Of a stretch of DNA of 56,283 bases, positions 11,197 to 51,894 are shown piece after piece. Location of the stretch: the sequence record SRR22947725_5541; one strand, written 5' to 3'. Position numbers and translations under genes: made by a program. The notes beneath the pieces were generated by a model that was not told where the DNA came from, searched no databases, and saw nothing but the letters and a program-made list of their open reading frames with translations. Each line of letters begins with the position of its first letter. Within the stretch, counting starts at the first letter, position 1.

Positions 11197-11241
11197 AAAA
11201 ATGAAATTATACTTAAAAATTATTCAATGATTGGAGGAGGT

Positions 11242-12690: not shown

Positions 12691-12780
12691 GGTAAAAAAG
12701 TTTGTTTGGTTGAAAATGCTGCGAAAGACCTTAAAACTCGATCTTTCAATTCGTTAAGTTATTGATGATCCAGCAATCGC

Positions 12781-26220: not shown

Positions 26221-26247
26221 CGAAAAAAATGGATACAATCTAAAGTT

Positions 26248-27813: not shown

Positions 27814-27818
27814 GAGTG

Positions 27819-29669: not shown

Positions 29670-29688
29670 TTCTTGATCGATCAAATTT

Positions 29689-29991: not shown

Positions 29992-29997
29992 ATCTTC

Positions 29998-30498: not shown

Positions 30499-30592
30499 GG
30501 ATTTAAATCATTCTTTGCAGCTCGTTTGTCCCTTACTGCTTTTGTTGCTTGTCGTGACCATTGTGCTCATTGAATCTATGGGGCAGGTTAAT

Positions 30593-31123: not shown

Positions 31124-31142
31124 GCGTGTGTTCTCCTCTCGA

Positions 31143-32228: not shown

Positions 32229-32248
32229 GTTTTGTCTTCGCTCTTCCC

Positions 32249-33964: not shown

Positions 33965-33970
33965 GTGGAG

Positions 33971-35386: not shown

Positions 35387-35405
35387 TGAAATCCATTCTG
35401 GTTGC

Positions 35406-35433
35406 TTGACTCCAAAAATCGTTTTGCTATGTT
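35406..35433 (+). promoter_or_regulatory. Putative promoter of tRNA-Gln
   Basis: TTGACT (35406-35411), 16 nt spacer, extended TGc-TATGTT (35428-35433), 18 nt before the tRNA. Confidence 0.6.
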
Positions 35434-35451
35434 TTCGCGTCTTAAGTTTTT

Positions 35452-35525
35452 TGCCGGATGGTGTAATGGTAGCACAGCAGTCTCTGAATCTGCTTGTCAT
35501 GGTTCAAATCCGTGTCCGGCAGCCA
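35452..35525 (+). tRNA. tRNA-Gln (anticodon CTG)
   Basis: Acceptor TGCCGGA/TCCGGCA-G-CCA, D arm GTGT-AATGGTA-GCAC, anticodon loop CT-CTG-AA, T loop GTTCAAATC, encoded CCA, 74 nt. Confidence 0.93.
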
Positions 35526-35557
35526 CCCCGTCTACAAACGATAGTTTCTTCTTTTGA

Positions 35558-36043
35558 TTATGGGCATTGATTGATGATCGTGTCTGCTTTCTCCTGACTG
35601 ACACCTTCGTGAAATTCATTATTGCACATTATGACAGGGGCTGTGCCACAACTAGCCAGGCACTCCACGAACTCCACTGAAAATTTGCCGTCTTCCGATG
35701 TCTGAAGCCCATGATTATCGGCATCCAAACCCAATTTGGAGCATACATGCTTATGGAGTTTTCCCGAGCCACCCAATGCGCAGCTCAATGTACGGCAAAC
35801 CTTTAGCACGTATTTACCTGCCGGCTCCTGCCTGAACATTGGGTAGAAAGTAACAAGCTCGTGAACATTGATTGGTTTTAGCTCAAGCTTCTTTGCAATC
35901 CATTCGATGCTTTCCTTGGAAACATGACCAAAGTGTTCCTGCAATGCGTGCAGAAGCATCATCGAAGCACTTCGCTTTTCTGGATAATGAGTGATCAGTT
36001 CTTCGATCTCGCTCTCCAGCTTTTGAGGTATGTTCAGACTCAT
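35558..36043 (-). CDS. nuoE: NADH-quinone oxidoreductase subunit E
   Basis: VTFYPMF, VCRTLSC and ECLASCGTAP (2Fe-2S ligands). Confidence 0.94.
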   Translation of the reverse strand: MSLNIPQKLESEIEELITHYPEKRSASMMLLHALQEHFGHVSKESIEWIAKKLELKPINVHELVTFYPMFRQEPAGKYVLKVCRTLSCALGGSGKLHKHVCSKLGLDADNHGLQTSEDGKFSVEFVECLASCGTAPVIMCNNEFHEGVSQEKADTIINQCP

Positions 36044-37308
36044 CTGTCGCTTTCTCCCATTACAAAATCGATTGAACCCAAAATCGCCACGACATCACTC
36101 ATCATTTCTCCCTTCAACAAGTAAGGAAGCACACTAAGATTCACGAACGACGGGGCACGGATTTTCATGCGGTTCGGTGTTCCTCCACCAATACTGTGTA
36201 TGTAAAATCCAAGTTCCCCTTTTGGGTTTTCAGCACCAAAATAAACTTCCCCGGAAGGGACGTTGACTCCCTGAGTCACCAACATGAATTGATGAATCAA
36301 TTCTTCCATGCTACTGAGCACTTTATCCTTGGCAGGAAGAACTGTCTTCCCATCGTCTATGCTAACAGGGCCTCCTGGAAGTTTGTCCAGACATTGACGT
36401 ATGATTTTGGCGCTTTGACGCATTTCTTCCATACGCACAAGGTATCTGTCATAGGAATCGCCCTTGGTCCCGACTGGAACCTCAAAATCCAATTCAGGAT
36501 AAACGAGGTAGGGGTTGCTTTTTCTCAAATCGTGTTCCACGCCGGATCCCCTCAGATTTGGGCCGGTGATTCCGTAATCAATAGCAATGTCTCTTGGCAA
36601 TACTCCGACCCCCTGCGTGCGGTCTACAAAAATTCTATTTCGAGTCAGGAGTGTTTCAGTCTCATCGAAATTGAATTCCACTTCTTCCAGGAATTTTCGA
36701 CATTGATCTACCCAACCATCCGGAAGGTCACGTGCAATACCTCCAATCCTCGTAAAGGAAGTAGTGAATCTGGCTCCTGTCAGTGATTCACACAGATTGT
36801 AAATTTTTTCACGTTCGGTAAACGTATGAAGAAATACAGTCAATGCTCCCACGTCCATTGCAAAGGCTCCAAGTCCCAGCAGATGAGCGGAAATACGTGC
36901 TAACTCGCAGCAGATAACACGTATGTATTGGCCTCTCTCAGGCAGCTGTTTGTCGATCCCCATCAGTTTTTCAACCGCAAGGGCATAGGCGACGTTGTTG
37001 GCTAGTGGTGCGAGGTAGTCCAGTCTGTCTGTATAGGGAACAAACTGGTTGTAAGTCATGCTTTCGGCAATTTTCTCATCGCCTCGGTGTAGATAACCCA
37101 CATCCGGACTGGCCTTGGTGATGATTTCACCATCAAGCTCCAAGATAATGCGTAGCACGCCATGGGTCGAAGGGTGAGAAGGGCCCATGTTGAGGATGAG
37201 TTTTTCGCCCATCATCTCCTCCTGACCCTGCACCTCAGCGGACTCGATACCATCCAGCGTTCTGCCGGCGGCGTCCTTTATCTCCAGGTCTTTGATTTCT
37301 GGTGCCAT
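36040..37308 (-). CDS. nuoD: NADH-quinone oxidoreductase subunit D
   Basis: NMGPSHPSTHGVLR, GYLHRG, DRLDY, ENPKGELG and D.VMGESDR. Confidence 0.97.
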   Translation of the reverse strand: MAPEIKDLEIKDAAGRTLDGIESAEVQGQEEMMGEKLILNMGPSHPSTHGVLRIILELDGEIITKASPDVGYLHRGDEKIAESMTYNQFVPYTDRLDYLAPLANNVAYALAVEKLMGIDKQLPERGQYIRVICCELARISAHLLGLGAFAMDVGALTVFLHTFTEREKIYNLCESLTGARFTTSFTRIGGIARDLPDGWVDQCRKFLEEVEFNFDETETLLTRNRIFVDRTQGVGVLPRDIAIDYGITGPNLRGSGVEHDLRKSNPYLVYPELDFEVPVGTKGDSYDRYLVRMEEMRQSAKIIRQCLDKLPGGPVSIDDGKTVLPAKDKVLSSMEELIHQFMLVTQGVNVPSGEVYFGAENPKGELGFYIHSIGGGTPNRMKIRAPSFVNLSVLPYLLKGEMMSDVVAILGSIDFVMGESDR

Positions 37309-37410
37309 GCTAATCTTCTTTTAAAATGTTACTTCTGCTAGTTTTCCCGGTCCTGACCCTCGAAATGGGCATGTAGTATCTTGTTTCCGAGCAAACGATA
37401 TTTTCAGTTG

Positions 37411-38004
37411 TTAATCTACTGTGCGCGCCCTTGGTTCACGTAAAGTAGTATGTGGTTGTCCTGGAGAAGTTACAAAAGGTCCACCTTCCATAGGTGCCTT
37501 TTCAGTGAATGCAACATCTGGCAGCTCGGTTTCTTTGCCCTCCAGAGGAAAATCCTTCCTCAATGGAAAGTAAGGATAGCCTTCCCACATGAGGATACGT
37601 CTTAGATCCGGGTGGTTCGTGAAGCGAATACCCATCATGTCGTATGTTTCGCGTTCATGCCAATCAGCCGTTTTCCAAACTTTTTCTACAGAAGGCACTT
37701 CACAATTCTCCTCTTCAACAAACACTTTCAAACGTAGATAAGTCTTGTTGGTCATACCGTAAAGCTCGTAGACCACGGAAAACCGAGGTTCTTCGCCCAG
37801 ATGATCCACTCCTGATAGATCCGTCAGGCAATCGAAACCAAGTTCATTTTTTGCGTAATTGCAGATCTCAGCGATTTTCGTCTTGTCATTGACCACAAGC
37901 GTGCATTCGCCCCTGAACTCGTAGATTTCCGAAAGCAAATCACCGAACTTGGCTTTCAAGTCGTTCGCCAGTTTTGCAGTTTTTTCGATGCTTGCGTCGC
38001 TCAT
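37411..38004 (-). CDS. nuoC: NADH-quinone oxidoreductase subunit C
   Basis: ADWHERETYDMMGIRF.NHPDLRRILMWE and PLRKDFPL. Start moved to MSDASI. Confidence 0.94.
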   Translation of the reverse strand: MSDASIEKTAKLANDLKAKFGDLLSEIYEFRGECTLVVNDKTKIAEICNYAKNELGFDCLTDLSGVDHLGEEPRFSVVYELYGMTNKTYLRLKVFVEEENCEVPSVEKVWKTADWHERETYDMMGIRFTNHPDLRRILMWEGYPYFPLRKDFPLEGKETELPDVAFTEKAPMEGGPFVTSPGQPHTTLREPRARTVD

Positions 38005-38032
38005 ATTTTTTATAAATGAATACTTGTTTAAG

Positions 38033-38575
38033 TCACTTGACGTGAGCACCTGCGAGAGCATCCGGTTTAGGTGCCTTGTGTGTCCTTATCAAAGGCTCTT
38101 TTGCGACCTGCTTCTGCAGTTTCATCAACGCATCCAGCAAAGCCTCCGGTCGGGGAGGGCATCCTGCCACATAGACATTCACTGGCACAATCTTGTCCAC
38201 ACCCTGCAAAACGGAGTAACTGCGATACATACCTCCAGTGGAGGCGCATGCTCCCATGGCAATCACCCACTTGGGTTCTGCCATCTGATCGTAGATGCGC
38301 CTCAGCGCCAGGGCCATCTTGTAGGTCACAGTGCCTGCTACTATCATAAGATCAGACTGACGTGGTGAAAAACGCATCACTTCCGAGCCGAATCTTGAAA
38401 TATCGAACCTACTGGATCCCGCTGCCATCAATTCGATGGCGCAGCAAGCCAATCCCATCGGCATCGGCCACAGGGAATTCTTCCTAAACCAATTCAGCAC
38501 GGCATCGACCTGAGTGACTATCACGTCTCCTTCGACTTTAGTGTTGTATCCTATTTCTTTTTGTGATGGATTCAT
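38033..38575 (-). CDS. nuoB: NADH-quinone oxidoreductase subunit B
   Basis: [25 protein letters not shown] and GCPPRPE. Confidence 0.96.
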
Positions 38576-38610
38576 TGTGATCTAATCAGAAAGCCCCTCC
38601 AGTTTCTTGC

Positions 38611-38639
38611 AAGCTACCGAGAGCTTAAAAGTGGTGCAA
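38611..38639 (-). promoter_or_regulatory. Putative promoter of the nuoB-N operon
   Basis: Minus strand TTGCAC (38639-38634), 17 nt spacer, TAGCTT (38616-38611). Confidence 0.45.
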
Positions 38640-38645
38640 GTGAAT

Positions 38646-38663
38646 TTGTGATTTTTTTCACAA
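38646..38663. promoter_or_regulatory. Palindrome TTGTGA-N6-TCACAA (Rex operator-like or CRP-family site)
   Basis: TTGTGATTTTTTTCACAA contains an exact TGTGA-N6-TCACA and matches 13 of the 14 defined positions of the Rex consensus TTGTGAAnnnnTTCACAA. Confidence 0.7.
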
Positions 38664-38782
38664 GCGTTATTGACGAGTCTAGATGGGTTCTGATAATCAT
38701 ATTTCCAGCATTAATAATGTGTTGCGTTAATTTGGGGCGTTTGAGCATGCAAACTGCTGAAAAACAGCAGTTTAAAAGTTTA

Positions 38783-38857
38783 GGCGGAGTAGCCAAGTGG
38801 TAAGGCAGGGCTCTGCAAAAGCTCTATGCGTCGGTTCGATTCCGACCTCCGCCTCCA
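38783..38857 (+). tRNA. tRNA-Cys (anticodon GCA)
   Basis: Acceptor GGCGGAG/CTCCGCC-T-CCA, anticodon loop CT-GCA-AA, T arm GTCGG-TTCGATT-CCGAC. Confidence 0.96.
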
Positions 38858-39093
38858 TCCCTTAATGCTTAATGAGTGGTTTTTCTCAGGGTAGTGCCTG
38901 CAGGTTTTGGTTTTGAAAAGAGTTTTTGTTTCTTTCCTTGCCTTGCTTGCGGCTAATCCTAAAGTGGTGCCGCTTTTTCTGTGAAATAAGTGGTTTTTCT
39001 ATTGGGGCCGCTCGTTTCGATGAAATGAGCGGCATTGGTGAACAACAGTTTTGTTCCGCTTTTATTAACTTAATATTAACTATAGATATCTGA

Positions 39094-39762
39094 ATGTCGG
39101 ACGTTTTTCCAAAATGGACGAATAAACTGCCTATCCGCGTTATCGTCGGACTCATCCTTCTGGGGGGAGCAACGGTGGTTGGCTTGACCTATTATGCGAC
39201 ACCTAAATACACGCGGGTGGGTTACCAACCCGTCCAACCCGTGGCTTTTTCGCATGCCATCCATGCAGATCAGCTTGGTCTCGACTGCCGTTATTGTCAC
39301 AACGGAGTGGAATCCTCCTGGTTCAGCAACGTTCCTGCAGCCTCGGTTTGTATGAATTGTCACAATCAGGTCAAAAAGGACGATCCTAAACTGGCCATGG
39401 TCAGAGAGAGCTACGACTCGGGTGAGCCCATCCCTTGGGTGCAGATACATAAAGTTCCAGACTATGTTTATTTCAACCATTCGGTGCACGTGAATCGCGG
39501 ATTTTCCTGCGTTGAATGCCACGGCCCTGTCAACAAAATGGATGAGGTATATCATGCGAAACCATTCGGTATGAGTTTTTGTCTCGAATGCCACCGAAAT
39601 CCTGCTGCCAAAATCCGGCCTCTGGACAAGATTACCGACTTGGATTGGAAATGGGATGAGGATCCCCAGAAGGCTTCCGAATTACAACAAACCCATGGAG
39701 ACCAAATGGTCCATGATTGGAAAGTTGAATCCCTTGTAAACTGTTCTGCGTGTCATCGATGA
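39094..39762 (+). CDS. actA: Alternative complex III subunit ActA (pentaheme cytochrome c)
   Basis: N-terminal TM helix, QPVQPVAFSH..H, and five CxxCH motifs (CRYCH, CMNCH, CVECH, CLECH, CSACH). Confidence 0.93.
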   Translation: MSDVFPKWTNKLPIRVIVGLILLGGATVVGLTYYATPKYTRVGYQPVQPVAFSHAIHADQLGLDCRYCHNGVESSWFSNVPAASVCMNCHNQVKKDDPKLAMVRESYDSGEPIPWVQIHKVPDYVYFNHSVHVNRGFSCVECHGPVNKMDEVYHAKPFGMSFCLECHRNPAAKIRPLDKITDLDWKWDEDPQKASELQQTHGDQMVHDWKVESLVNCSACHR

Positions 39763-42700
39763 AAGACCTAACGTATTCCCCAAAAACATCTGGACCTGCT
39801 TACTGGCGCAGTCTGGACGAGCTGACGGAGACTCCTGAGTTTCGTCAATGGGTGGAAAAAGAATTCCCCGAAAGCACTTTGGAAGCTCCCAGTGGTCAGT
39901 CTCGTCGCGATTTCGTCAAAATCATGGGAGCCTCTTTTCTTCTTGGAGGGATGGGCCTGACGGGTTGTCGGCGTCCGGAGGAAACGATTGTGCCGTTTTC
40001 CAAGATGCCTCAAAATTACGTGCACGGTGTGCCGCAATATTTTGCAACTTCCATGCCCACACGTGACTCCGCCGTACCTTTATTGGCCAAGTCCAGCGAT
40101 GGGAGGCCTACCAAAGTTGAAGGCAATCCCGATCTGTCATTTGGCAAGGGAGGCACGGATGCTTTCGCGCAAGCTTCATTGCTGAATCTCTACGATCCGG
40201 ATCGCTCCAAAAAATTTCTCAAAGAAGGGAACGCCTCGAGCCGTTCAGCTGCCCTCGGTGGGTTGAAAGCTATCAGTGGCAAGTTTCAAGGAAACAAGGG
40301 AAAAGGACTTCATTTCCTTGTCCAGCCGACAAGCTCGCCTTCTCGTAATCGTCTTGAAATGATGATTCGCGAACAACTCCCTGAAGCCAAATGGCACGGA
40401 CATGAGCCGGTTGATTTCAGAAATGCTTCCAAGGCTTCCGTGAAGTCTTTCGGAAAGGCATTGCGCCCAATGCCTCATTTCGACAAAGCCAAGGTGATCT
40501 TCTCCCTGGACAATGACTTCCTTGGAGCTGAGCAGGAATCTTATTCCCACATACGTGGTTATGCTGATGGTCGTCGATTGAAAGAGACAGAGGATCATCA
40601 TTCAACGATGAATCGACTTTACGCAGTCGAAAGCCTAATGACACTGACTGGCTCAAATGCTGACCATCGTCTGCGAGTCACTTCTGGTCAGGTTTTCAGC
40701 GTTGCAGCTGCAATGGTCGAAGAAATTTTCAATCAGATCGGAAATAGTGATGACGATGCAGGCAGTCCCATCACCGCCTTGCGAAGTTCGCTTCGTGAAA
40801 AAGCCAAAGCAGTTGCTGTCGATCCCAAATGGATCACGGAATCGGTGAAAGATCTGGTTGCTCACCAAGGCGAATGTCTCGTAGTTGCTGGATACCGCCA
40901 GCCTGAATCTGTTCACCAGCTGGCCACTGCACTCAACGTTCTGCTCGGTAACCTCGGGGAAACAGTGTCTTATGTCTCGGATAACTCTATCTCCTACGAC
41001 TCTCTCGAGGCGTTAAAGGGGGAATGTGATGCGGGTAGTGTGGACACACTCGTTGTTTTAGGTGGAAATCCAGTTTATGACGCCCCTGCTGACTTCGATT
41101 GGAAAATCACTCAGCGCAAGGCCAAAACTGTGGTGCGTCTGGGTTATTACGACGATGAAACTTCCGATGGTTGTGACTGGCACTTGCCAATGGCTCATTA
41201 TCTCGAGTCCTGGGGTGATGCGCGGTCAGGTGATGGAAGCTACCTCCCCGTCCAGCCATTAATGGCTCCTCTTTTCGATGGTCTGACTGATCTGGAGGTA
41301 ATTGCCCGTATTGCTGGCAATGATGAAATCAAGCCTTACGATATCGTCAGAACAACCCTCAGAGGAGTTGTAGGGGAAGCTGGTTTTGAAGGTCAATGGA
41401 AACAGTTTCTGCATGATGGTTATCTGGAATCTCTCAAGCCAGAAAATGTGGATATAAAAGCGGACACTTTCGATTGGTCAGCTGTGACTCGTGAAGTGAG
41501 TCAGGCGATCACCGAAGCAGATCAATCCTCAGCGGCATCCAAAGATTCTCTCGAAGTCGTCTTTCACCGTGATTCCAGCATGGATGACGGCCGTTTCAAC
41601 AACAACGGTTGGATGCAGGAGATGCCCGATCCAATGACCAAGATTACTTGGGATAATGTGGTGTTGATGAGCCGACGTACTGCGGCCGAGCTGGGGGGGA
41701 TCAAGAACAAGGAGATGGTAGAAATCGTCCTTGACGGTCGCAAAGTTCAGGGGCCTGTCTGGATCCAGCCTGGTTTTGCAGATTTTTCTCTGGGGCTTGC
41801 CCTCGGTTATGGGCGTACTCACAGCGGTCGTGTTGGTGGGATCGAATCTGAATCGGTCGGCTTCAACGCGTATGCCATCCGTGCATCCAAAAACAGCAAC
41901 TTTGGAACTGGGGCCAAGCTCAACCGCTTGAACCGTATCTTCGATATTTCATGCACTCAGGACCATTGGTCGATGGAAGGACGTGCGATTGTTCGTGAGG
42001 CAAACCTCGAGCAATTTGAAGAAAAACATGATTTTGCCCAGAACATGGATCTGGAGGCGCATACAAGCCATATCCCTCACGATGATGAAGGGAATCCAGC
42101 AGAAATCTACGAGCATCCATACAAGGCCCGCCCCTCCACGAGCAGCGACATTCATCAGTGGGGAATGGCTATCGATCTGCAGACCTGCGTGGGTTGTTCT
42201 TCCTGTGTGGTTGCTTGCCAGAGCGAAAACAACATTCCAATTGTTGGCAAGGAGCAAGTAGCCAACAGTCGTGAAATGCACTGGATGCGTATTGACAGGT
42301 ATTACAGCGGTAATCCTGAAACACGCGGTAATGCAAGCAATCTGATCATGGATGATGAGCAGCCTTATCAGGAATGGATTGATGATCCTCAAGTCGTCAA
42401 TCAACCGATGATTTGTCAGCACTGCGAAAGTGCTCCTTGCGAAAGTGTTTGCCCAGTGAATGCGACGGTTCATGATCACGAAGGACTCAATGTCATGGCT
42501 TACAACCGTTGTGTCGGAACCCGCTATTGCTCCAATAACTGTGCATGGAAAGTGCGTCGTTTTAACTATTTTGACTACAACAAGCGTCCCATCGACCAGC
42601 TTTATGAAGGACCGCTTGCCTCTCGGCCTGAAGAGGACATCGATCTCATAGAAATGGCCAAAAACCCTGATGTCACTGTTCGCATGCGTGGCGTCATGGA

Positions 42701-43127
42701 AAAATGCACCTTTTGTACTCAGCGTATTGAGCAAGCCAAAATTGCCAAAAAGGTTGCTGCCAGAGATTCAGGAGACATTGAAGTGCCTGACGGGACCATC
42801 AAAACCGCCTGCCAACAGGCTTGTCCGGCAGATGCGATTGCATTCGGTAATTTACTAGACCCTGAAAGCAAGGTATCCAAACTCAAGAAGAGCCCGCGTA
42901 ACTACGCCGTACTTGGATTTCTGGATACCAGGCCACGCACGACTTATCTGGCAAAGATTCGTAATCCGAACAAAAACATGCCCGACTATCATACCATGCC
43001 ATTGAGCACTTTGGAGTATACAGAGAACATGGGAAGTCCGTTTGAGGAACATGGCTCATCCCACGGAGGGGAAGCCCACGAGAGTGGACATGCGGTTGAA
43101 ACTCACTCAGAAGGAGGGCAACACTGA
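39759..43127 (+). CDS. actB: Alternative complex III subunit ActB (Tat-exported molybdopterin-oxidoreductase-like domain plus Fe-S domain)
   Basis: YWRSLDEL, Tat motif SRRDFVK, lipobox LTGC, four C-terminal Fe-S motifs including [11 protein letters not shown], and [16 protein letters not shown] overlap with actA. Confidence 0.94.
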
Positions 43128-44554
43128 TGTCATCGCCTGGCACACATCATTCAGTTGAAATTGCACCTCCGCCTCGAGAAATCGAGCGCGAACCATTGGT
43201 CCTGAACAATCGGTCCCTCGCTTGGATCTCTGACCAAATCGCCGGTATCATTGAAGGTAAAACACCAAGGTGGTGGTGGGTGATGATGGCCTGCAGTCTC
43301 CCATTGATGCTCATGTGCTTTGCCATGATCGGGTATCTGATCTCTACAGGTGTCGGAGTCTGGGGTTTGAACCATCCGATCGCATGGGGCTGGGCCATTG
43401 TGAATTTCGTGTTCTGGATTGGTATTGGTCATGCTGGAACTTTGATTTCAGCGGTACTTTTTCTATTGAGGCAGAAATGGAGGACATCGATCAACAGGGC
43501 AGCTGAGGCGATGACAATTTTTGCAGTGATGTGTGCGGGGATTTTTCCAGGCATCCACGTGGGACGTATCTGGTTTGCCTGGTGGTTGTTTCCTCTCCCA
43601 AACGCAAATGGACCCATATGGCCGCAGTTTAGATCTCCTCTCTTGTGGGACGTATTCGCGGTATCCACTTATTTCACCGTCTCATTTCTCTTCTGGTATA
43701 TGGGATTGATTCCTGATTTAGCAACCATCCGAGACCGTTGCAAAGGGTTCATTCGAAAATTCGCCTACGGTTTATTCTCATTAGGATGGACAGGATCCAA
43801 CCGTCATTGGAGCAATTATGAAAAGGCTTATCTCCTTTTGGCTGGCCTATCCACACCGCTCGTTTTGTCGGTGCACAGTATCGTTTCATTTGATTTCGCG
43901 GTATCGCAGTTGCCGGGTTGGCACACTACTATCTTCCCGCCTTATTTCGTGGCGGGAGCCATTTTCTCAGGTTTCGGTATGGTGCTGACTTTAATGATTC
44001 CCTTGCGTTCGATTTTCAAGCTAGAAGACTTGCTGACGATCCGACACATCGAATTGATGTGTAAGGTGACCTTAGCCACCGGCACCATTGTAGGATACGC
44101 CTATGGCATGGAATTTTTCATTGCCTGGTATGGCGGTAACCCTTACGAAGCTTATGCTTTCCAGAATCGTGCCTTCGGCCCTTACTGGTGGGCTTATTGG
44201 ATCATGATTTCGTGCAATGTGATCACCCCTCAGTTTTTCTGGTTCAAGAAACTGCGAACGAACGTTGTGGTCGTTTGGGTGTTATCCATTTTTGTGAATA
44301 TTGGCATGTGGTTTGAGCGGTTTGTGATTGTTGTCACTTCGCTGCACCGAGACTACCTGCCGGCTAACTGGGGATATTATTCTCCAACCAAAGTAGATGT
44401 GTTGACCTTCATCGGTACATTTGGATTGTTCATGGTTCTGTTTCTCTTGTTCATCAGATTCCTGCCATTGATCGCCATTTCTGAAGTGAAGGGAGTCACC
44501 AATCAGGCAGATCCACATCATCCGCTGGGTGGTGCGAAAGGAGGTCACCACTAA
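43127..44554 (+). CDS. actC: Alternative complex III subunit ActC (NrfD family, quinol-binding)
   Basis: [42 protein letters not shown] and [12 protein letters not shown]. Confidence 0.95.
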
Positions 44555-45093
44555 TGAGTGATAATTCTCAAGCATACGGCCTTTTGGCTGAATTTACGAC
44601 GCCTGCGGATGCCATGCATGCCGCGGAGAAAATCAGGGATGCTGGGTATTCTCGATGGGATGTTCACACTCCATTTCCCATTCATGGAATGGATGATGCG
44701 ATGGGGCTAAAAGACTCCAAAGTGGGTTGGTTCTCTTTCTGTGGTGGAGCGACAGGTTTCACCGCAGGTTACTTAATGGTTTGGTTCATGAATAGCGTCA
44801 ACTACCCAATCGTTGTGGGAGGTAAGCCACTGTTTAGTCCAATGTTTCCCTTTCCGGTTGTCTATGAAATGACCATTCTACTCTCCGCTTTTGGAGCGTT
44901 GTTTGGAATGTTAATTCTGAATCGGTTGCCTAAACTACATCATCCTTTGCTAAAGAACCGTCGTTTCAAGGGGGCGACCCATGACAAATTTTACGTGATT
45001 ATTGAAACGTCGGATCCCCGTTACATCGAATCGGAGACACGCGAACTGCTTGAATCGACTGGCTGTAAACACATGGAAATGGTGGAGGACTGA
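44554..45093 (+). CDS. actD: Alternative complex III subunit ActD (DUF3341)
   Basis: LAEF, TPFPIHGMDDAMG, VGGKP and YEMTIL. Confidence 0.92.
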   Translation: MSDNSQAYGLLAEFTTPADAMHAAEKIRDAGYSRWDVHTPFPIHGMDDAMGLKDSKVGWFSFCGGATGFTAGYLMVWFMNSVNYPIVVGGKPLFSPMFPFPVVYEMTILLSAFGALFGMLILNRLPKLHHPLLKNRRFKGATHDKFYVIIETSDPRYIESETRELLESTGCKHMEMVED

Positions 45094-45094
45094 G

Positions 45095-45709
45095 ATGCGA
45101 TATTTTATAACCCTTTACATATTATTAATCGTGGCCTTCGTAGGTGTGGCCGGATTTCGTGGCACCATTTCACGTAAACCTCCCATCGAGGTGTTCCCGG
45201 ACATGGATCGGCAAATGAAGTTGCGTCCGCAGGAGCCAAATCGTTTCTTTGGGAACCGAAGAAGCTCTCAACCATTCGTACCAGGCACGATTGCTCGTGG
45301 AATGCCTTACAAGGATATCCCTCTGAACACAGGTCGAATAACAGGTTCAACCAACTGGGTTGAAATCAGCCCGGTTGAAATTACTGAAGCTGTCATGGAG
45401 CGTGGACACCAGCGCTACGATATTTATTGCACACCCTGTCATGGTGCGGCTGGTGATGGCAAGGGGATCACTGGCAAATATGGGATGGTAGCCGTGGCCA
45501 ATTTTCACGATCCGCGTCTGGTATCCATGACCGATGGGGAAATATTCAATACCATTACCCACGGTAAGAATCTGATGGGCCCTTATGGTGCCAATATCAA
45601 AATCGAAGATCGTTGGTCTATCATCGCTTATCTTCGTGCGCTCCAGCGCAGTCGGTTGTCCACAATGGACGATGTGCCCGAACCACAAAAAGCAGCTCTT
45701 CAAAATTAA
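45095..45709 (+). CDS. actE: Alternative complex III subunit ActE (monoheme cytochrome c)
   Basis: PDMDRQ, GTIARG, CTPCHG, IFNTITHG..LMGPY and DRW.IIAY.RALQ. ATG at 45095. Confidence 0.9.
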   Translation: MRYFITLYILLIVAFVGVAGFRGTISRKPPIEVFPDMDRQMKLRPQEPNRFFGNRRSSQPFVPGTIARGMPYKDIPLNTGRITGSTNWVEISPVEITEAVMERGHQRYDIYCTPCHGAAGDGKGITGKYGMVAVANFHDPRLVSMTDGEIFNTITHGKNLMGPYGANIKIEDRWSIIAYLRALQRSRLSTMDDVPEPQKAALQN

Positions 45710-45715
45710 CGACCT

Positions 45716-46963
45716 ATGAGTTCTGAAACATCCAATGCATCTGAACCCAAGCTGGATCTGGCCAAATGGGCCAAGCTTCCAAACCAACTTATGTTGGGTG
45801 GTGGCATCTTATTGTTGATCGGTTTCCTGTTTCCTGGTTGGCGCGATCAGTTTTACTATAGCTATCTGACCGGTTTCATGTGCTTTTTGAGCCTGACGCT
45901 TGGGTCACTATTTCTGGTTCTCCTGCACCATTTGTTTGATGCCTACTGGTTGGTGCCTGTTCGCAGGTTTCTCGAACATATTGCATGTCTTGCACCCACG
46001 ATGGGATTTTTGTTTCTACCCATCCTGATTTTCTCATCACAAATATATCCATGGATGTCGATTGATCCGAATATTGATCATGCCTTGCATGTAAAAGTGG
46101 CACTCTTCAACAAGAAGGCCTTCTGGATCACCTCAATCGTGCTGTTTGTTATTTGGACGTGGTTGAGCAAAAGTTTACGCAAGCATTCATTGGCCCAAGA
46201 TGAAACGGGGGCAGCTACGCATACACATTCACTGCGCAAATTGGCGGCACCAGGGGTAATCATTTTTGCCTTCACACTCACACTTGGTGTCATTTTCTGG
46301 ATGAAATCGCTGGAGCATCAGTGGTTCTCTACCATGTATGGTGTCTATTACTTTGCCGGCAGCGTCTGGTTGACCCTGGCCACAACTTACTTGCTCACCG
46401 CCATCCTGCAGCGAACAGGGCATCTCGCTCCTGTCGTCACAGACAATACCTACAAAGACATCGGGACATTGTTTTTTGCTTTCACTGTCTTTTATGCCTA
46501 TATCCATTTTTCTCAGTATTTCTTGATATGGAATGCAGCTATTCCCGAAGAAACTTTCTGGTACGTCAAACGTGAGAATGGTATTTGGGAGAGCATCGGT
46601 TATCTGATCATTTTCGGACATTTCTTTGTTCCTTTCCTGGCGATGCTTCGCATAGACGTTAAGAAATCGCTCATCATCATGGGGCCACTTGCCATCTGGG
46701 CCTGGTTGATGCACTACGCAGACATGACTTACAACATCAAACCAGTGCTGGACCCAGAAGGCGGTAGCATCACTCTGAGTGGATTTGTCCAAAGTATTGC
46801 AGCCTTGGCTTTCATGGGCGGTGTTTTATCCAAAGGCTTTTTAAAATCATTTATCAGTCATCCTCCTTTCCCTCAGAAGGACCCTCGCATCGCTGAGGCC
46901 ATGGGAGTTTATGTAGAATTGGAATCCGAGGCGGCTAATAAGACTAAATCTGCGGACGCATGA
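45716..46963 (+). CDS. actF: Alternative complex III subunit ActF
   Basis: Polytopic membrane protein with VRRFLE, WMKSLE..WFSTMYG, Y.HFSQYFLIW and PEET.WY..R. Confidence 0.9.
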   Translation: MSSETSNASEPKLDLAKWAKLPNQLMLGGGILLLIGFLFPGWRDQFYYSYLTGFMCFLSLTLGSLFLVLLHHLFDAYWLVPVRRFLEHIACLAPTMGFLFLPILIFSSQIYPWMSIDPNIDHALHVKVALFNKKAFWITSIVLFVIWTWLSKSLRKHSLAQDETGAATHTHSLRKLAAPGVIIFAFTLTLGVIFWMKSLEHQWFSTMYGVYYFAGSVWLTLATTYLLTAILQRTGHLAPVVTDNTYKDIGTLFFAFTVFYAYIHFSQYFLIWNAAIPEETFWYVKRENGIWESIGYLIIFGHFFVPFLAMLRIDVKKSLIIMGPLAIWAWLMHYADMTYNIKPVLDPEGGSITLSGFVQSIAALAFMGGVLSKGFLKSFISHPPFPQKDPRIAEAMGVYVELESEAANKTKSADA

Positions 46964-47003
46964 TTTTCATAGGATGACACAAATCCAGAATATTTCCTGA
47001 TTA

Positions 47004-47390
47004 ATGAGAACAAGCATCAGTAATAAACAGAATATGCGAGGCGTTGCCTTCGTTTATTTCGTGGGGATCATGGCCACGTTTTTCATCATGGCCTTTCTTA
47101 TTTGGGTGACCAAGGAATTCACAGAGCCCAGAGCAATCGCTGCAAATCGCGCGAATGAGCGTGCAGAAAATTTGCAAACTGTCAACGAAGCAGTAGCTCC
47201 CTTGTTGAATGAATACGGTTGGCAAGATCAGGAAAAAGGTTTTGTAAGGGTGCCCATCAAACGCGCGATGGAACTCACGGTGAAAGAGTGGCAAAATCCT
47301 GCCAAAGCCAGATTGGAGTTAATATCCAGAATGGAAAAGGCAACTGCGCTCCCACCACCGCCACCCGAAGAACCCAGTGCTTTTGAATAA
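47004..47390 (+). CDS. Small single-TM protein following actF (ActG-like)
   Basis: One TM helix and the motif LNEYGWQD..KGFVRVPIKRAMEL, which I recognise from small proteins downstream of actF. Alternative start at 47034. Confidence 0.65.
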   Translation: MRTSISNKQNMRGVAFVYFVGIMATFFIMAFLIWVTKEFTEPRAIAANRANERAENLQTVNEAVAPLLNEYGWQDQEKGFVRVPIKRAMELTVKEWQNPAKARLELISRMEKATALPPPPPEEPSAFE

Positions 47391-47438
47391 TAAGCCGGTC
47401 AATATTAAATCAATGACGTTGCTGAACAAGTAAACGGT

Positions 47439-48911
47439 ATGGACGTTACTCAATCATCTAAATCACCATCTGACTGGACGGAAATCGATTCATCTTATCG
47501 TTTTCCAACACTCTTCCTTGCATCTAAAGCAGTAGGTTGGCTTTTGTTAGGAAGTATTTTTTCTCTCATTGCATCCATTAAGATGCACTCACCAAGTTTT
47601 CTGGCAAGCTGCCCATGGGTAACCTACGGGGTCATGATTCCGGCTGCCTTGAACGCGGTCGTTTATGGATTTGCTCTTCAAGGTGCATTTGCCGCCTTAC
47701 TCTGGATCACCATGCGATTGGGGCAAGTCAAGTTGGTTGGGCCTGGTTACCTTTTCATTGGATCCGCGCTTTGGAACGTCGGTGTACTTCTGGGGGTCAT
47801 CGGTATCATGGCAGGGCATAGTTCGGGCCACACTTATCTGGAAATGCCCGGGTTCGTTTCGCCCATCTTATTTGCTGCCTACACGCTCATTGGAGGAATG
47901 GCGCTGGTGACCTTTCACAAACGACAAGTCCGCGAGCTTTACCCATCCCAGTGGTTTATTTTTGCCGCCCTCTATTGGTTTCCATGGATATTGACTGCTG
48001 GCAGTTACTTGCTCGTTATCTCCCCTGTCAGGGGAGTGACTCAAATGATCATTGGTGGTTGGTATGCATCCGGATTGAATGTCATCGTACTCGGTTTTGT
48101 CGGCATTGCCATCATTCAATACATGTTGCCCAAGTTAACCAAGCGCGACTTACACAATGGTTATCTTTCATTGTTTTCCTTCTGGATCATTATGCTTTTT
48201 GGTGGATTCACTGGTCTGTTTCCCGGTCAATCACTTCCATCCTGGGTGGGATCGCTCAGCGCTGTATGCAGTGTCTTCGTTGCATTTGCCTGGTTGGTTC
48301 TCGCCTACAACATCTATCGAACCATTGGAGGCGCTTCCGGTAAATCGGGTGGTCTTTCCTACAAATTCATTTATTTCTCCGCTGCTGCGGGGCTGCTATC
48401 CGCCGTGTTGACCGCCTGGGCTTCCCGAGCCTCTGCTGCAGATGTCGTTCAGTTTACTTTATTCCTTCCTGGCCTGAAATGGTTGCATCTTTACGGGTTT
48501 GTTGGAATGGGATTACTCGGGTGCATTCACTATTTTCTTCCAAAAGTTACCGGAACCGAATGGTCGAGACCGGGGCAATGGACTGCTATTTTCTGGACTT
48601 ATGCCATTGGGACAAGTGGGGTGGCAATCGCCTTTCTGGTTGGGGGATGGAAGCACGGTAAAGGTTTAATTGACCCAGAAACTCCTTTCATGGACGTGGT
48701 CCGTGAAGGTATTGCCCCTTTCGTGCGAATCAGCACCGTCGGTGAATTGCTAGTTTTCGTAGCAGCCGCCTTACTCTGCTGGAACGTCATAACCTTGTTT
48801 TGTAGAACCTACTGCTCCTGCTTTTGTTTGGGAGGCCTTTCACAGGACAAGGCTGGAACTTCCAGTGAAACAAAGAAATCTCAACCCAAAAAAAGTTCGA
48901 AAAACAAATAA
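47439..48911 (+). CDS. cbb3-type oxidase subunit I (CcoN) homolog apparently lacking heme/CuB histidine ligands
   Basis: About 12 TM helices with CcoN-like landmarks (TYG..P...NA..YGF, YLE, LY.S.W, WY, Y.LPK, SFW, LP.W, FT, YGF, Y.LP). It is followed by a ccoO-like gene. Confidence 0.82.
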   Translation: MDVTQSSKSPSDWTEIDSSYRFPTLFLASKAVGWLLLGSIFSLIASIKMHSPSFLASCPWVTYGVMIPAALNAVVYGFALQGAFAALLWITMRLGQVKLVGPGYLFIGSALWNVGVLLGVIGIMAGHSSGHTYLEMPGFVSPILFAAYTLIGGMALVTFHKRQVRELYPSQWFIFAALYWFPWILTAGSYLLVISPVRGVTQMIIGGWYASGLNVIVLGFVGIAIIQYMLPKLTKRDLHNGYLSLFSFWIIMLFGGFTGLFPGQSLPSWVGSLSAVCSVFVAFAWLVLAYNIYRTIGGASGKSGGLSYKFIYFSAAAGLLSAVLTAWASRASAADVVQFTLFLPGLKWLHLYGFVGMGLLGCIHYFLPKVTGTEWSRPGQWTAIFWTYAIGTSGVAIAFLVGGWKHGKGLIDPETPFMDVVREGIAPFVRISTVGELLVFVAAALLCWNVITLFCRTYCSCFCLGGLSQDKAGTSSETKKSQPKKSSKNK

Positions 48912-49801
48912 TGAATCAGGGCCCCTTACTTTTTTTAAGCGTGCTTTGCGCCATGGCTGCCTCTTGGATGGGCTTCGTGCTGATGCCTCAGGTTCAGCTC
49001 GGTAACCAGTCCACACGACTCGTCAAAGAAATTGGCAGGCATTATCCTGCTGAGCGTGGAGGCATAGCGGTTAAAGGTCACGATGTTTACCGCGCTGCGG
49101 GCTGTGTGTCTTGTCACACCCAACAGGTCCGACAAACCGGTTTCATCTTCGATATCGTGTTGACTGATGCTGGCGATTTCACCGACTTGGTTACCTCACT
49201 CGTTCAACAAGCCAATGGTGATCTGTCCGATCAACAGGCCGCAGATATTGTTGCTAATGCACCGAAGACAATCCTGGAGGGTGTGTCGAAACAAACGGTG
49301 GACAGTATCGCTTTTTTGTTCAAAGACAGCGGTGGCAAAGTTGCTGCGAACATCCGACCCATTGGACCGGATATTGATCGTGGATGGGGACCTCGCCAGA
49401 CCGTTGGACTGGATTATTTGTTTGATGAACCCGTATTAATGGGCAGCCAACGTATTGGTCCTGATCTGGCAGATGTTGGCTCTCGTCTGGCAGATAGAAA
49501 TTGGCATTTACTGCATCTTTACCACCCTCGCACGGTTGTTGAAAAGTCGATCATGCCCGCTTATCCCTATCTATTTGAAACACGTGAAATCGGCGATTCA
49601 CCTTCTCCAGACGCCTTGGCGCTGAAAGGTGAGTTTGCCCCTGAAGAGGGCATGGAAGTAATACCCACCTCGGAAGCAAACGCTTTGGTTGAATACCTGC
49701 TTAGCCTCCGAATCTTTCACCCCGTTTTTGAAGCCCCCTACATATTTACCCAAGCTGAACCCAGTGAAAACATCGATTCGGAAATGGAGCCGGCTGAATG
49801 A
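48911..49801 (+). CDS. cbb3-type subunit II (CcoO/FixO)-like monoheme cytochrome with a ~70-aa insertion
   Basis: TM anchor, GHDVY...GCVSCHTQQVR, GSQRIGPDLA, WHLLHLYHPR, SIMPAY (axial Met) and ALVEYLLSL. TAATG overlap with the upstream gene. Confidence 0.88.
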   Translation: MNQGPLLFLSVLCAMAASWMGFVLMPQVQLGNQSTRLVKEIGRHYPAERGGIAVKGHDVYRAAGCVSCHTQQVRQTGFIFDIVLTDAGDFTDLVTSLVQQANGDLSDQQAADIVANAPKTILEGVSKQTVDSIAFLFKDSGGKVAANIRPIGPDIDRGWGPRQTVGLDYLFDEPVLMGSQRIGPDLADVGSRLADRNWHLLHLYHPRTVVEKSIMPAYPYLFETREIGDSPSPDALALKGEFAPEEGMEVIPTSEANALVEYLLSLRIFHPVFEAPYIFTQAEPSENIDSEMEPAE

Positions 49802-50424
49802 GTGCAAAGCCTAAGAAAACTGTCCACAAGAAAAAGCACGCAGATGAACGTGAACCTGGGGTACATCAGGAACCAGTTCCCGTCCTGTTATTTGTCATTT
49901 TGCTGCTTCTTGCCTTTTGGGGAATGATGTATCTGCACACCAATGCAGGTGGTTTCAATCGCTATGTTTATGGCCCATTTGAGTCATATGCCATGGTTTC
50001 CGACGTCCAGCCGGGTAGTTCGGATGACCCAATGAAGCGTGGTGCTGATGTTTACAAAAGCATTTGCCTCCCCTGTCACCAAGCATCAGGTTTGGGAGCT
50101 CCCGGGCAATTTCCTCCTCTTGCTGGTTCCGATTGGGTGAATGTAGAAGGCCCCAACCGCATGCTTCGTATCGTAATCAACGGTCTGAGCGGTCCTGTTG
50201 AAGTCAACGGGCAAAGTTGGTCTGGTGCCATGCCCGGGTTTGGCGATGTGATTGCTTCTGACGAAGACCTGGCTGCTGTGATCACGTATGTCCGTAATTC
50301 ATGGGGTAACGAGGCGAGTGTTTGCACTCCTGAGGAGGCAGCATTAGTGCGATCAGAATCAGCGGATCGTGGTCGCCCATGGTCCAGCCCTGAATTACTC
50401 AACCTCTCTGTTGAAGTCCAGTAG
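49798..50424 (+). CDS. Membrane-anchored class I monoheme cytochrome c
   Basis: TM helix, CLPCHQ, FPPLAGS, GL.GPVEVNG, AMP and AAVITYVRNSWGN. ATGA overlap. Confidence 0.9.
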   Translation: MSAKPKKTVHKKKHADEREPGVHQEPVPVLLFVILLLLAFWGMMYLHTNAGGFNRYVYGPFESYAMVSDVQPGSSDDPMKRGADVYKSICLPCHQASGLGAPGQFPPLAGSDWVNVEGPNRMLRIVINGLSGPVEVNGQSWSGAMPGFGDVIASDEDLAAVITYVRNSWGNEASVCTPEEAALVRSESADRGRPWSSPELLNLSVEVQ

Positions 50425-50499
50425 CCAACACTGAGTCATCTAGCTCAAGTTAGAATCGCTAGTTTACATCACGGGCTTCTTACGCCATCAATAATATCC

Positions 50500-50982
50500 A
50501 TGTCTCATGTTGGTATAGGTTATGACGTTCATCGTCTCAAGGAAGGGCGCAAGCTTGTCCTTGGCGGTGTAGAAATTCCGCACGATAAGGGATTGGACGG
50601 TCATTCCGATGCTGATGTAGTCCTACACGCTTTATGCGATGCAATTTTCGGAGCACTTGGAGAGCAAGACATTGGTCAGTTTTTCTCCAATACTGATCCT
50701 AGATGGAAAGACGCTCCCAGTAGCCTGTTTCTGGATGAAGCGGGCAAGCACATCAAACTTCGTGAGGGTAATTTGATCAATGTAGATATTACTGTGATTG
50801 CGGAAGAACCCAAAATAAATCCCCACGTCAATGCAATGAAATTGATCATCGCAGAATGCCTCGATATCAATCCTCGCAAGGTATGTGTCAAAGCCACTAC
50901 CAACGAGCGCATCGGTTTCATTGGGCGAGGTGAGGGTATGGCTGCCATGGCTGTCGTCAGTATCAAGCTTCCTGAGGCTTAA
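50500..50982 (+). CDS. ispF: 2-C-methyl-D-erythritol 2,4-cyclodiphosphate synthase
   Basis: GIGYDVH, GHSDADVVLHA, DIG and KATTNE.IGF.GRGEG. Confidence 0.96.
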   Translation: MSHVGIGYDVHRLKEGRKLVLGGVEIPHDKGLDGHSDADVVLHALCDAIFGALGEQDIGQFFSNTDPRWKDAPSSLFLDEAGKHIKLREGNLINVDITVIAEEPKINPHVNAMKLIIAECLDINPRKVCVKATTNERIGFIGRGEGMAAMAVVSIKLPEA

Positions 50983-51153
50983 GACCGCCCTGGTATATAC
51001 CTGAGCGTTTACTCCAGAACTTCACGCCTGCGCTGAATGTTGCATTACACGAGGTATTGATGTTTTATTCAGCTCTGCCAGAATGGATTGTTCCCTTCTT
51101 GAAGCGGGTCTTCGTAGTGTTACAAAGCCTTCAATTCTCAGACCTGACCGCTT

Positions 51154-51894
51154 TTATCGGTAAGGTTGATTAAGTTCAACCTTAGGTTGTTTTCGTCGGG
51201 CACGTAGCTTCATATTGATTATTTCAACCGCGAGTGAAAAGGCCATGGCAAAATAGATGTAGCCTTTTTCTACTTTTACATGGAATCCCTCCAGAGTAAG
51301 GATAAAACCGATCAGAATCAGGAAACTGAGTGCAAGGACTTTCAGGCTAGGGTGCTTGTCGATGAACCTACTCACGGTGTTAACGAAAATGAGCATGACG
51401 ATCATCGCAATAACGACGGCGGTGATCATTACTGGCACCTCATCCACCATACCGACCGCCGTGATAACGGAATCCAGAGAAAATACGACATCCAGGAGCA
51501 TGATTTGGAATAAGACACTACCCATGGTTGCAGTCATTCCGCTGGTCTTGTGTCCATCTTCTCCTTCGAGCTTATCGTGGATTTCATGAGTGGCCTTGCC
51601 AATCAGAAACAACCCGCCAAAAAGCAGAATCAGGTCGCGACCTCCAAAAGTTTTGCCAAGTATGGTAAACAATGGTGTGGTTAGCTTGGCCATCCAGGCG
51701 ATTCCCATCAGTAATATGATTCTGGAGATAAGAGCCAGTGCCAGTCCAATTTTGCGCGCTTTGTCTTGTTCTTCTTTGGGAAGTTTACTTGCAAGAATTG
51801 AGATGAAGACGATGTTGTCAATCCCTAGCACAATTTCCAACAATGTCAGTGTCAGCAAGCTGACCCAAATCTCTGGTGATGTAATCCACTCCAT
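51154..51894 (-). CDS. TerC-family membrane protein
   Basis: LEIVLGIDNIVFI, GGLFLI.KAT.EIH, DVVFSLDSVITAVGM and KGYIYFAMAFS. Confidence 0.92.
   Translation of the reverse strand: MEWITSPEIWVSLLTLTLLEIVLGIDNIVFISILASKLPKEEQDKARKIGLALALISRIILLMGIAWMAKLTTPLFTILGKTFGGRDLILLFGGLFLIGKATHEIHDKLEGEDGHKTSGMTATMGSVLFQIMLLDVVFSLDSVITAVGMVDEVPVMITAVVIAMIVMLIFVNTVSRFIDKHPSLKVLALSFLILIGFILTLEGFHVKVEKGYIYFAMAFSLAVEIINMKLRARRKQPKVELNQPYR

Follow-up and report, generated by a model that had tools for sequence, protein, structure and literature searches.

In Rhodothermus marinus and Flavobacterium johnsoniae, alternative complex III (ACIII) is encoded by actABCDEF(G) genes followed on the same strand by genes of the heme-copper oxidase (HCO) type, and c-type hemes link ACIII to a caa3 oxidase in the former and to an aa3 oxidase in the latter, as described in the available parts of PMC5928083 and PMC8552683. 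The c-type donor domain belongs to subunit II of the caa3 oxidase in R. marinus and to ActA in F. johnsoniae, according to the available part of PMC5928083, and how ACIII hands its electrons over to acceptors is still debated in the accessible text of PMC8552683. Here we analyzed a 56,283-nt stretch of DNA from sequence record SRR22947725_5541 (hereafter the window), in which ten + strand open reading frames (ORFs) at positions 39094-50424, assigned by ORF calls and Pfam/NCBIfam scans, encode actABCDEF, an ActG-like gene, and a trio that we named psN, psO and anchored cytochrome c (cyt c). The actABCDEF set is complete, comprising a pentaheme ActA, an Fe-S ActB, two NrfD-like subunits, ActD and a monoheme ActE. 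As in the two described systems, act genes are followed by HCO-type genes on the same strand; in contrast to them, subunit I (psN) is of the C family and lacks all cofactor ligands, and the catalytic oxidase is encoded elsewhere in genomes of the window's genus. The best explanation, to which we assign a probability of about 60%, is that psN is a non-catalytic scaffold holding two c-type hemes at the exit of ACIII, and that these feed a terminal oxidase encoded elsewhere.

The CcoN-like protein psN carries none of the six canonical histidine ligands (two for heme b, one for heme b3 and three for CuB). It contains eight histidines, all at other positions, so that an earlier note on this DNA, which had called the protein His-less, was right for the six ligand positions and wrong for the protein as a whole. 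Pairwise alignments to 3mk7_A and 9g6b_A, together with family alignments, give the replacements H60 to A, H207 to S, H345 to L and H347 to W in Pseudomonas stutzeri numbering; H257 and H258 fall into a gap in the pairwise alignment and correspond to F and P in the family alignment. This family alignment held 87 proteins, namely the window's psN and 86 of 89 search matches (two shorter than 440 aa and protein P0093, 23% identical, were left out). All six histidines are present in only three of the 87, and the replacing residues vary by lineage, with A/S/F/P/L/W in the window and ANAQRD, QHPNQN and SESHFV among the patterns elsewhere. The fold is retained. The AlphaFold2 (AF2) model of psN, with a predicted local distance difference test (pLDDT) of 91.3 and a predicted template modelling score (pTM) of 0.90, shows the 12-helix fold of HCO subunit I, and its best Foldseek matches are CcoN chains, with template modelling (TM) scores of 0.83-0.89, root-mean-square deviations (rmsd) of 2.0-2.4 Å and 18-20% identity (0.85/0.89, 2.2 Å and 20% for CcoN 9g6b_A). 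Against profiles, psN reaches 82.1 bits with PF00115, above the cut-off of 34.8, and 64.9 bits with the equivalog TIGR00780, far under its cut-off of 583.15.

To see which other positions changed, we compared 33 ligand-complete with 107 ligand-poor proteins encoded beside ACIII (hereafter ACIII-linked), column by column. Among the 183 columns at least 90% conserved in the ligand-complete proteins, 55 are kept in the ligand-poor ones, and the columns lost include the six histidines, Y251, R57, R437 and E122 (P. stutzeri numbering). Y251, which we take to be the active-site tyrosine cross-linked to a CuB histidine, is Tyr in 100% of the 33 ligand-complete proteins and Gly in psN and in 71% of the 107 ligand-poor ones; psN also lacks the propionate-binding arginines, both of which are replaced. 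The newly conserved columns of the ligand-poor group number only four and are trivial (P, Y, L, G), so that nothing points to a catalytic or binding site newly gained in ligand-poor psN. As a separate observation, the motif WFPW (psN 180-183) and H50 are conserved in both ACIII-linked groups and absent from the canonical CcoN of the same genus, which makes them candidates, judging from the alignments, for a contact surface particular to the ACIII-linked clade.

Compared with the cbb3 oxidase CcoNOP of P. stutzeri (3MK7), the trio shares the fold of psN, the heme-c site of psO and an anchored cytochrome c as third gene, at the position of ccoP; it differs in that psN lacks the His ligands and the cross-link Tyr, psO carries a 70-aa bL12-like insertion, and the third protein has one heme, not two. 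The heme-c motifs of the partners are kept, with CXXCH present in 151 of 153 psO ORFs and in all 140 cyt c ORFs. The psO of the window scores 88.1 bits with the FixO profile PF02433 (cut-off 29.6), retains CVSCH and the distal Met (MPAYP), and matches CcoO chains of the PDB at 1e-19; its TIGR00781 score is only 80.2 bits against a cut-off of 200.65, with the insertion splitting the profile match. The cyt c has a single CXXCH and reaches 30.5 bits with TIGR00782, under the cut-off of 179.95, and does not qualify as a diheme CcoP.

The insertion in psO begins right after CXXCH. It matches the C-terminal domain (CTD) family of ribosomal protein L12 (Ribosomal_L12, PF00542) with an E value of 5e-5 (its 23.9 bits fall slightly short of the 25.9-bit cut-off) as well as bL12 chains of the PDB, and PF00542 is matched at E <=0.1 in the psO of 21 of 32 relatives, six of these exceeding the Pfam cut-off. 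In the AF2 model, the insertion folds as beta-alpha-alpha-beta-alpha-beta with a pLDDT of 89-96 (quality is poor in the heme domain, from which the heme was absent during modelling), and its best Foldseek matches are bL12 CTDs (8yeq, TMt 0.93, rmsd 1.0 Å, 31% identity; 1ctf, TMt 0.91). The foreign insertion that the earlier note had seen in this CcoO-like protein is thus real and has a bL12 CTD fold at residues ~77-151; it shares this fold with the ribosomal domain but sits inside a periplasmic membrane-anchored cytochrome, which is unusual in its own right. The distance from CXXCH to GPDL is 36-44 residues in canonical and ligand-complete ACIII-linked proteins and 82-194 where the insertion is present. 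In the numbering of this analysis (L for loci, G for genomes, P for proteins), the insertion occurs in 68 of the 80 ligand-poor loci of L001-L098, in none of 28 ligand-poor loci of other orders and in none of 32 ligand-complete ACIII-linked loci; it therefore arose after ligand loss. That the bL12-like domain could offer a docking surface is a guess.

We next consider selection on the operon. Against three relatives of 95-97% amino-acid identity, the ratio of nonsynonymous to synonymous substitution rates (dN/dS) of psN was 0.076, 0.123 and 0.176, and the same comparison gave 0.009-0.031 for ActC, 0.058-0.116 for ActF and 0.099-0.185 for ispF, the gene that follows the operon; psO (about 0.03-0.05, range 0.032-0.046) and cyt c (0.012-0.025) both lie below psN. 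Several genes of L019 contain N in this comparison, and relatives at 69-75% identity were not used because synonymous sites were saturated (dS >2 or undefined). Of 41 related genomes, 37 carry a psN homolog with an open frame (28-97% identity), as do 24 of the 27 that are at least 90% complete; the nearest relative genome, G001 (79% complete), gave neither a PF00115 nor a psN match. These values contradict the decaying remnant that the earlier note had raised, for which dN/dS would be near 1. Thus, psN is relaxed relative to the Act core yet clearly constrained.

In a synteny scan that took a single genome for each species, at least 572 stretches were confirmed, and the best 80 loci were analyzed; they are nearly all from Verrucomicrobiota, many of them labelled Limisphaerales or Pedosphaera. 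The earlier note had called for such a neighborhood survey; the act-psN order is kept in these best 80 loci: ActF and/or the small gene lies immediately upstream of psN in 80/80, psO comes next after psN in 76 (the remaining four stop at a contig edge), and the complete ten-gene set is present in 43, the rest being interrupted by contig ends. All genes are collinear on one strand in 79 of the 80, the exception being a cross-match of ActC on its paralog ActF. The ispF gene lies downstream in five whole-genome relatives, directly after cyt c in four. A variant order was seen in L142 (G122), where a cyt c-like match lies between ActF and N and not after psO. Act-psN loci in sequences titled as metagenome-assembled genomes of Haliangiales, Binatia, Acidoferrum, Methylomirabilota and Bifidobacteriaceae (L031, L043, L059, L067, L071, L072, L091, L092, L094 and L097) are probably mis-binned or mislabelled contigs, because they nest among Verrucomicrobiota rows on the tree. 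L026, L048, L053 and L072 were left out of alignments A3 and A4 because the coordinates, as extended for the analysis, crossed a stop codon, from which nothing follows for those genes.

Ligand-complete ACIII-linked modules of other Verrucomicrobiota show where psN may have come from. They have the same ActF-small-N-O-c order (30/30) and fall in the same clade as psN; unlike the window, they have all six His plus the Tyr, and none of 32 carries the bL12-like insertion. Their published counterpart is the "C-type oxidase with ACIII" of Opitutaceae, for which PMC8498564 cites Refojo et al. 2010. These sisters are 30-38% identical to psN. One of them, P0053 (38% identical), which is among the three ligand-complete proteins of the 87-protein alignment, was searched against 301 genomes of the phylum and gave matches at E <=1e-30 in 91. 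At the best 30 loci, which come from other families of the same class, the ligand positions are HHHHHH throughout and the order is ActF-(small)-N-O-c in every case; the weaker matches L130-L155, from the same class, are ligand-poor and lie beside ACIII. ActF or the small gene was found upstream in 26 of the 27 loci L129-L155, the exception being the ligand-complete L129, which ends at a contig edge.

In a FastTree tree of 159 rows, built with the ligand columns removed and rooted on canonical fused CcoNO, the ACIII-linked proteins form one clade (support 100), with ligand-complete proteins basal and the 115 ligand-poor rows together (SH-like 96); this clade is separate from canonical CcoN (support 100). 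An IQ-TREE tree of 74 rows nests the ligand-poor L132 and L134 (family f23) inside the ligand-complete f23 proteins with a support of 99, and requires three changes of ligand state. A single origin of the ligand-poor state was rejected, weakly: the one-clade tree is 61 log-likelihood units worse, with a p-AU of 0.033 for a group that was named after the tree had been seen. From these sequences we conclude that an ACIII-linked, presumably active C-type oxidase was ancestral and that the ligands were lost inside the operon, because ligand-complete sisters share the ACIII context in other Verrucomicrobiota, and were lost more than once (at least three times on the IQ-TREE tree). Three sets of loci stand apart. 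L130 and L131 (G089, G341) have the pattern HNQRYH, in which the two heme-b ligands are kept and the heme b3 and CuB ligands are gone, and their N proteins may be a heme-b-only intermediate. L165-L167 (G101, G230, G299) carry, besides the ligand-poor ACIII-linked N, a ligand-complete N of a separate clade, which adjoins CcoO-like (CXXCH-GPDL spacing of 44 residues) and cyt c genes and not ACIII. L156-L160 (family f59, same phylum) form a further ligand-complete CcoN-like clade of 462-546 aa, and no CcoO-like or cyt c gene was detected within 2.5 kb of these genes.

An oxidase inventory in same-genus genomes (n=5, 75-95% complete) found an A-type CoxI in 5/5, a fused CcoNO in 2/5 and a bd oxidase in 0/5, in line with the earlier note's suggestion that the trio may feed an oxidase encoded elsewhere. 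Its statement that the window contains no cox, sco, ccoGHIS or second ccoN also held in a Pfam scan of the 41 other ORFs, and ccoQ was not found in the window. The fused CcoNO from the same-genus genome G006 has all six ligands. Across the order, HCO matches occur in 57 of 61 genomes, with an A-type match at ~440 bits in most and a fused CcoNO match at ~410 bits in many, besides a weaker psN-type match. The aa3 locus of the genus, seen in two genomes, reads ctaA-ctaB-coxI-coxIII-(coxIV)-coxII-SCO1-DUF420, and its CoxII (256-262 aa) has a cupredoxin domain only, without a cytochrome c domain. Such an aa3 oxidase, having no cytochrome c domain of its own, requires a c-type donor, and we infer that this donor would be psO together with the anchored cyt c, both of them held by psN.

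The same gene order extends to cultured methanotrophs. The "cbb3-type oxidase" next to ACIII is known from Methylacidiphilum (Kam1, SolV, IT6), and the Kam1 protein shares the ligand-poor clade and the operon context of psN; unlike the window, Kam1 keeps 1/6 His, has a psO without the insertion and has aa3 genes directly downstream. Its one-strand cluster reads actABCDEF-small-psN-psO-cytc-coxI-coxIII-coxIV-...-coxII, and an A-type coxI immediately follows cyt c in five of the loci L129-L168. The ligand-poor ORF of L163 is 100% identical to P0094, a "cytochrome oxidase" of Methylacidiphilum kamchatkense Kam1, to which a Methylacidiphilum infernorum protein listed as "cbb3-type cytochrome c oxidase subunit I" is 72% identical. 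Aligned pairwise with P0053, the Kam1 protein has S, E, S, H, F and V at the ligand positions. The PF00115 matches in Kam1 are two A-type proteins, one B-type, one of 472 aa (198 bits) that is probably NorB, and the psN-type protein (50.9 bits), and no other C-type subunit I was found in this genome by the PF00115 search. Two side observations concern these genomes. The actC of Kam1 (L171, 7829-9267) appeared as two overlapping ORFs, 7829-8965 and 8953-9267, in a crude ORF call, for which a frameshift, an artefact of the start codon or a genuine split may be the reason. In L164 (G173, of Kam1's genus), ActF, ActE and ActD were not matched within ~2.1 kb upstream of the small gene, and the other three genomes of the genus differ in this respect; in one Methylacidiphilum strain, the IT6 study reports, a nos cluster has inserted into the ACIII cluster, and the arrangement in L164 may be the same situation.

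Adjacency of ACIII and a "cbb3" in Verrucomicrobia is already published. The Kam1 genome paper describes ACIII genes co-located with a cbb3-type oxidase (available part of PMC6688271), and a review, in the text available, lists cbb3, aa3 and ba3 oxidases for verrucomicrobial methanotrophs and cites Refojo et al. 2010 for C-type oxidases beside ACIII in methanotrophs and Opitutaceae (PMC8498564). The Methylacidiphilum "cbb3" has been taken as a high-affinity terminal oxidase (in the accessible parts of bioRxiv 10.1101/2024.01.15.574570 and PMC10205796), its transcripts are reported at similar levels under oxic and anoxic N2O conditions (available part of the IT6 study), a Limisphaera paper also lists a cbb3 oxidase, and public sources name the psN family "cbb3-type cytochrome c oxidase subunit I". 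In the literature searched, including the available part of the HCO-diversity paper PMC11214002, we did not find it stated that the ACIII-linked CcoN lacks its ligands, although subscription journals or supplements may contain such a statement. The "new respiratory module" of the earlier note is therefore not new as a gene arrangement; in the literature searched we came across no account of the pseudo-enzyme state, of how widely it occurs (cultured methanotrophs included) or of the bL12 insertion.

Based on these data, we propose the following model. Lacking the ligands, psN would be unable to bind heme b, heme b3 and CuB, and hence to reduce O2 or NO, and would be kept as a structural membrane subunit. 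It would hold psO and the CcoP-like cyt c, each anchored by a single helix, beside the heme wire of ACIII, which runs from ActA to ActE, and electrons leaving ACIII would cross the hemes of psO and cyt c and so reach a true terminal oxidase whose genes lie elsewhere. As acceptor, the aa3-type oxidase, with no cytochrome c domain in its subunit II, would be the most likely, and a fused CcoNO cbb3 or periplasmic reductases could serve as alternative acceptors. The earlier note had proposed a repurposed oxidase chassis that holds a c-heme wire at ACIII; ligand loss, purifying selection and the kept heme-c motifs bear this out in part, whereas the scaffold role, the physical attachment to ACIII, the path that electrons take, the direction in which they flow and the acceptor that they reach are what we infer from them. 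A wider version, in which the HCO core was turned several times independently into a cofactor-free adaptor that, with its two c-type cytochromes, wires ACIII to an aa3 oxidase devoid of a cytochrome c domain, giving a three-part ACIII/pseudo-cbb3/aa3 assembly, with the bL12 domain as docking surface in Limisphaerales and with methanotrophs devoid of any cbb3, is more tentative, and we consider it possible rather than probable.

Several observations weigh against the proposed scaffold. No result demonstrates contact of the trio with ACIII or with any oxidase; a complex prediction for ActC and psN (score 0.00, with alignments unused and controls not folded) speaks neither for nor against such contact. 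In the window's order, coxI was downstream in 0/54 loci of L015-L097 having at least 2.5 kb of downstream sequence. On sequence grounds, psN may still bind a heme or metal through non-canonical residues: H50 is conserved in both the ligand-complete (97%) and the ligand-poor (76%) group, and the Kam1 protein has His residues four after the H207 position and a few before the H345 position. For the members that diverge most, among them Methylacidiphilum, the ligand positions were read from alignments with 22-26% identity. Moreover, psN evolves faster than the Act core, with 33-46% identity compared with 81-88% for ActC in four genomes of a second genus of the family (L015-L018). As to expression, four marine metatranscriptome runs, each from a different study, contain contigs of at least 95% identity that cover 30, 30, 29 and 29 of 30 bins (38600-51200) and bridge ActF-small-psN-psO (X2, 45938-49439), psN-psO-cyt c (X5, 47975-50481), ActF-small-psN (X1, 46774-48088) and cyt c-ispF (X1, X4); these are assembled contigs from RNA libraries that may contain DNA, and a gene-spanning contig is no proof of a single transcript. 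We take them as consistent with expression of the act-psN genes and as no more than that.

The evidence for a scaffold would fit equally well if the trio were a free-standing membrane cytochrome c complex that serves ACIII as acceptor or hub without being its physical subunit, psN being a mere anchor. The canonical cbb3 is a stand-alone complex, and strict synteny denotes co-function, not contact. However, the operon is unbroken in 80/80 loci of an order, plus other orders, which is more typical of the subunits of one assembly, and supercomplexes of ACIII with an oxidase are documented in both R. marinus and F. johnsoniae (in the available parts of PMC5928083 and PMC8552683), so that we regard a free-standing complex as rather unlikely. 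It is still more doubtful that psN gained an activity independent of heme and copper, such as ACIII-coupled ion or proton conduction, quinone binding or sensing. Purifying selection across the whole of psN would suit such an activity, as would the 55 columns common to both groups, which include the WFPW absent from canonical CcoN of the genus; but the ligand-poor group shows no newly conserved polar or charged residue, and Y223, S240, Y317, T215 and H337, which are presumably the residues of the cbb3 proton pathway, are among the columns not kept.

The two remaining alternatives have little in their favor. That psN is still a heme-copper enzyme, reducing O2 or NO with cofactors bound through other residues, agrees with its annotation as cbb3 subunit I by public sources and several papers and with a score above the Pfam COX1 threshold, but is very improbable given that psN has other residues in place of all six ligands, of the cross-link Tyr and of both propionate-binding Arg, and that these replacements are lineage-specific, unlike a conserved alternative site. 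A recent inactivation, with psN heading for loss and surviving only by chance or through polar effects on the cytochrome genes downstream, would account for psN evolving faster than its neighbors; it is hardly credible in view of a dN/dS of 0.076-0.176, of frames that stay open, at 28-97% identity, in 37 of the 41 related genomes, and of a ligand-poor state common to lineages as distant as Methylacidiphilum. We thus retain the non-catalytic scaffold that holds the two c-type hemes at the ACIII exit as our preferred explanation.

The coordinates of the operon are listed in Table 1. The ten co-oriented genes with gaps below 50 nt, followed by ispF, were confirmed as the earlier note had described them; neighboring act-psN genes either overlap by 1-13 nt or are separated by 1, 6, 40 or 48 nt. 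The start of actE is most likely the ATG at 45095, 1 nt past the actD stop, the ORF as listed opening at a TTG at 45002. Across five relatives, ActA is 70-89% identical and ActF, at the same position, 53-79%; ActC is 81-94% identical in relatives, and an ActC query cross-matches ActF weakly in other loci. The 128-aa protein matches the ActG chain 8k9e_G weakly (E 0.16, 36 residues, motif YG..G.V.IPI.RAM.L), and its homolog sits between actF and psN in related loci too, making ActG a plausible assignment for which we use the name "ActG-like". A promoter and terminator scan gave 7 promoter-like sites (15.5 expected) and 18 terminator-like sites (13.6 expected), and was uninformative on the operon ends.

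Table 1. Genes of the act-psN operon and the gene that follows it, with positions in the window.
Feature	Position	Strand	Evidence
ActA, pentaheme cytochrome c with N-terminal transmembrane helix	39094..39762	+	Cytochrome c7/c3 Pfam, QrcA-like NCBIfam; CXXCH x5
ActB, fused molybdopterin-oxidoreductase-like (B1) and 4Fe-4S (B2) protein	39750..43127	+	TIGR04519 TAT-variant signal; QrcB-/QrcC-like; Fer4
ActC, NrfD-like membrane subunit	43127..44554	+	PF03916, 83 bits
ActD	44554..45093	+	PF11821, 215 bits
ActE, monoheme cytochrome c (one CXXCH)	45095..45709	+	PF13442/PF00034
ActF, second NrfD-like membrane subunit	45716..46963	+	Position and tblastn conservation; no Pfam match
ActG-like protein with a single transmembrane helix, 128 aa	47004..47390	+	Position, predicted single transmembrane helix; no Pfam/NCBIfam match
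psN, CcoN-fold membrane protein	47439..48911	+	PF00115; AF2 model; Foldseek
psO, CcoO-like monoheme cytochrome c with transmembrane anchor, CVSCH and MPAYP	48911..49801	+	FixO profile
bL12 CTD-like insertion in psO, residues ~77-151	49139..49363	+	PF00542; bL12 PDB matches; AF2 and Foldseek
Membrane-anchored monoheme cytochrome c, weakly CcoP-like, CLPCH	49798..50424	+	PF13442/PF00034
ispF	50500-50982	+	75-nt gap after the cyt c gene

Upstream of actA and divergent from it lies a complex I operon, nuoB-nuoN (24775-38575, - strand), with Pfam matches to the 20K, 30K, 49K, 24K and 51K subunits and to NuoG, H, I, J, K, L and N. No recognizable nuoA ORF was found within the 518 nt that separate nuoB from actA, and a broken nuoM was considered and rejected (581-codon open frame at 26248-27993). 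Further away, at 6030-13230 on the - strand, the window carries a SUF Fe-S assembly cluster with a Fur-family regulator (SufB/D, a SufC-like ABC protein, a cysteine desulfurase, a NifU-like protein and a rhodanese), and a DsbD-type thiol:disulfide protein, relevant to cytochrome c maturation, is encoded at 3301-5589.

Judging by the replaced ligands, the annotated "cbb3" of many Verrucomicrobia, cultured methanotrophs included, is probably unable to reduce oxygen. If psN binds neither heme b nor copper, oxidase inventories and low-oxygen interpretations for much of Verrucomicrobiota need correcting, and if verrucomicrobial methanotrophs truly have no cbb3, their reported high oxygen affinity must stem from another enzyme. 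A respiratory catalytic core would here have been retained as a pseudo-enzyme, its ligand-complete and ligand-poor sisters forming a natural series on what a cofactor-free scaffold contributes, and the psN-psO-cyt c module is a candidate for a built-in exit wire of ACIII, a question that the cultured carriers make directly testable.

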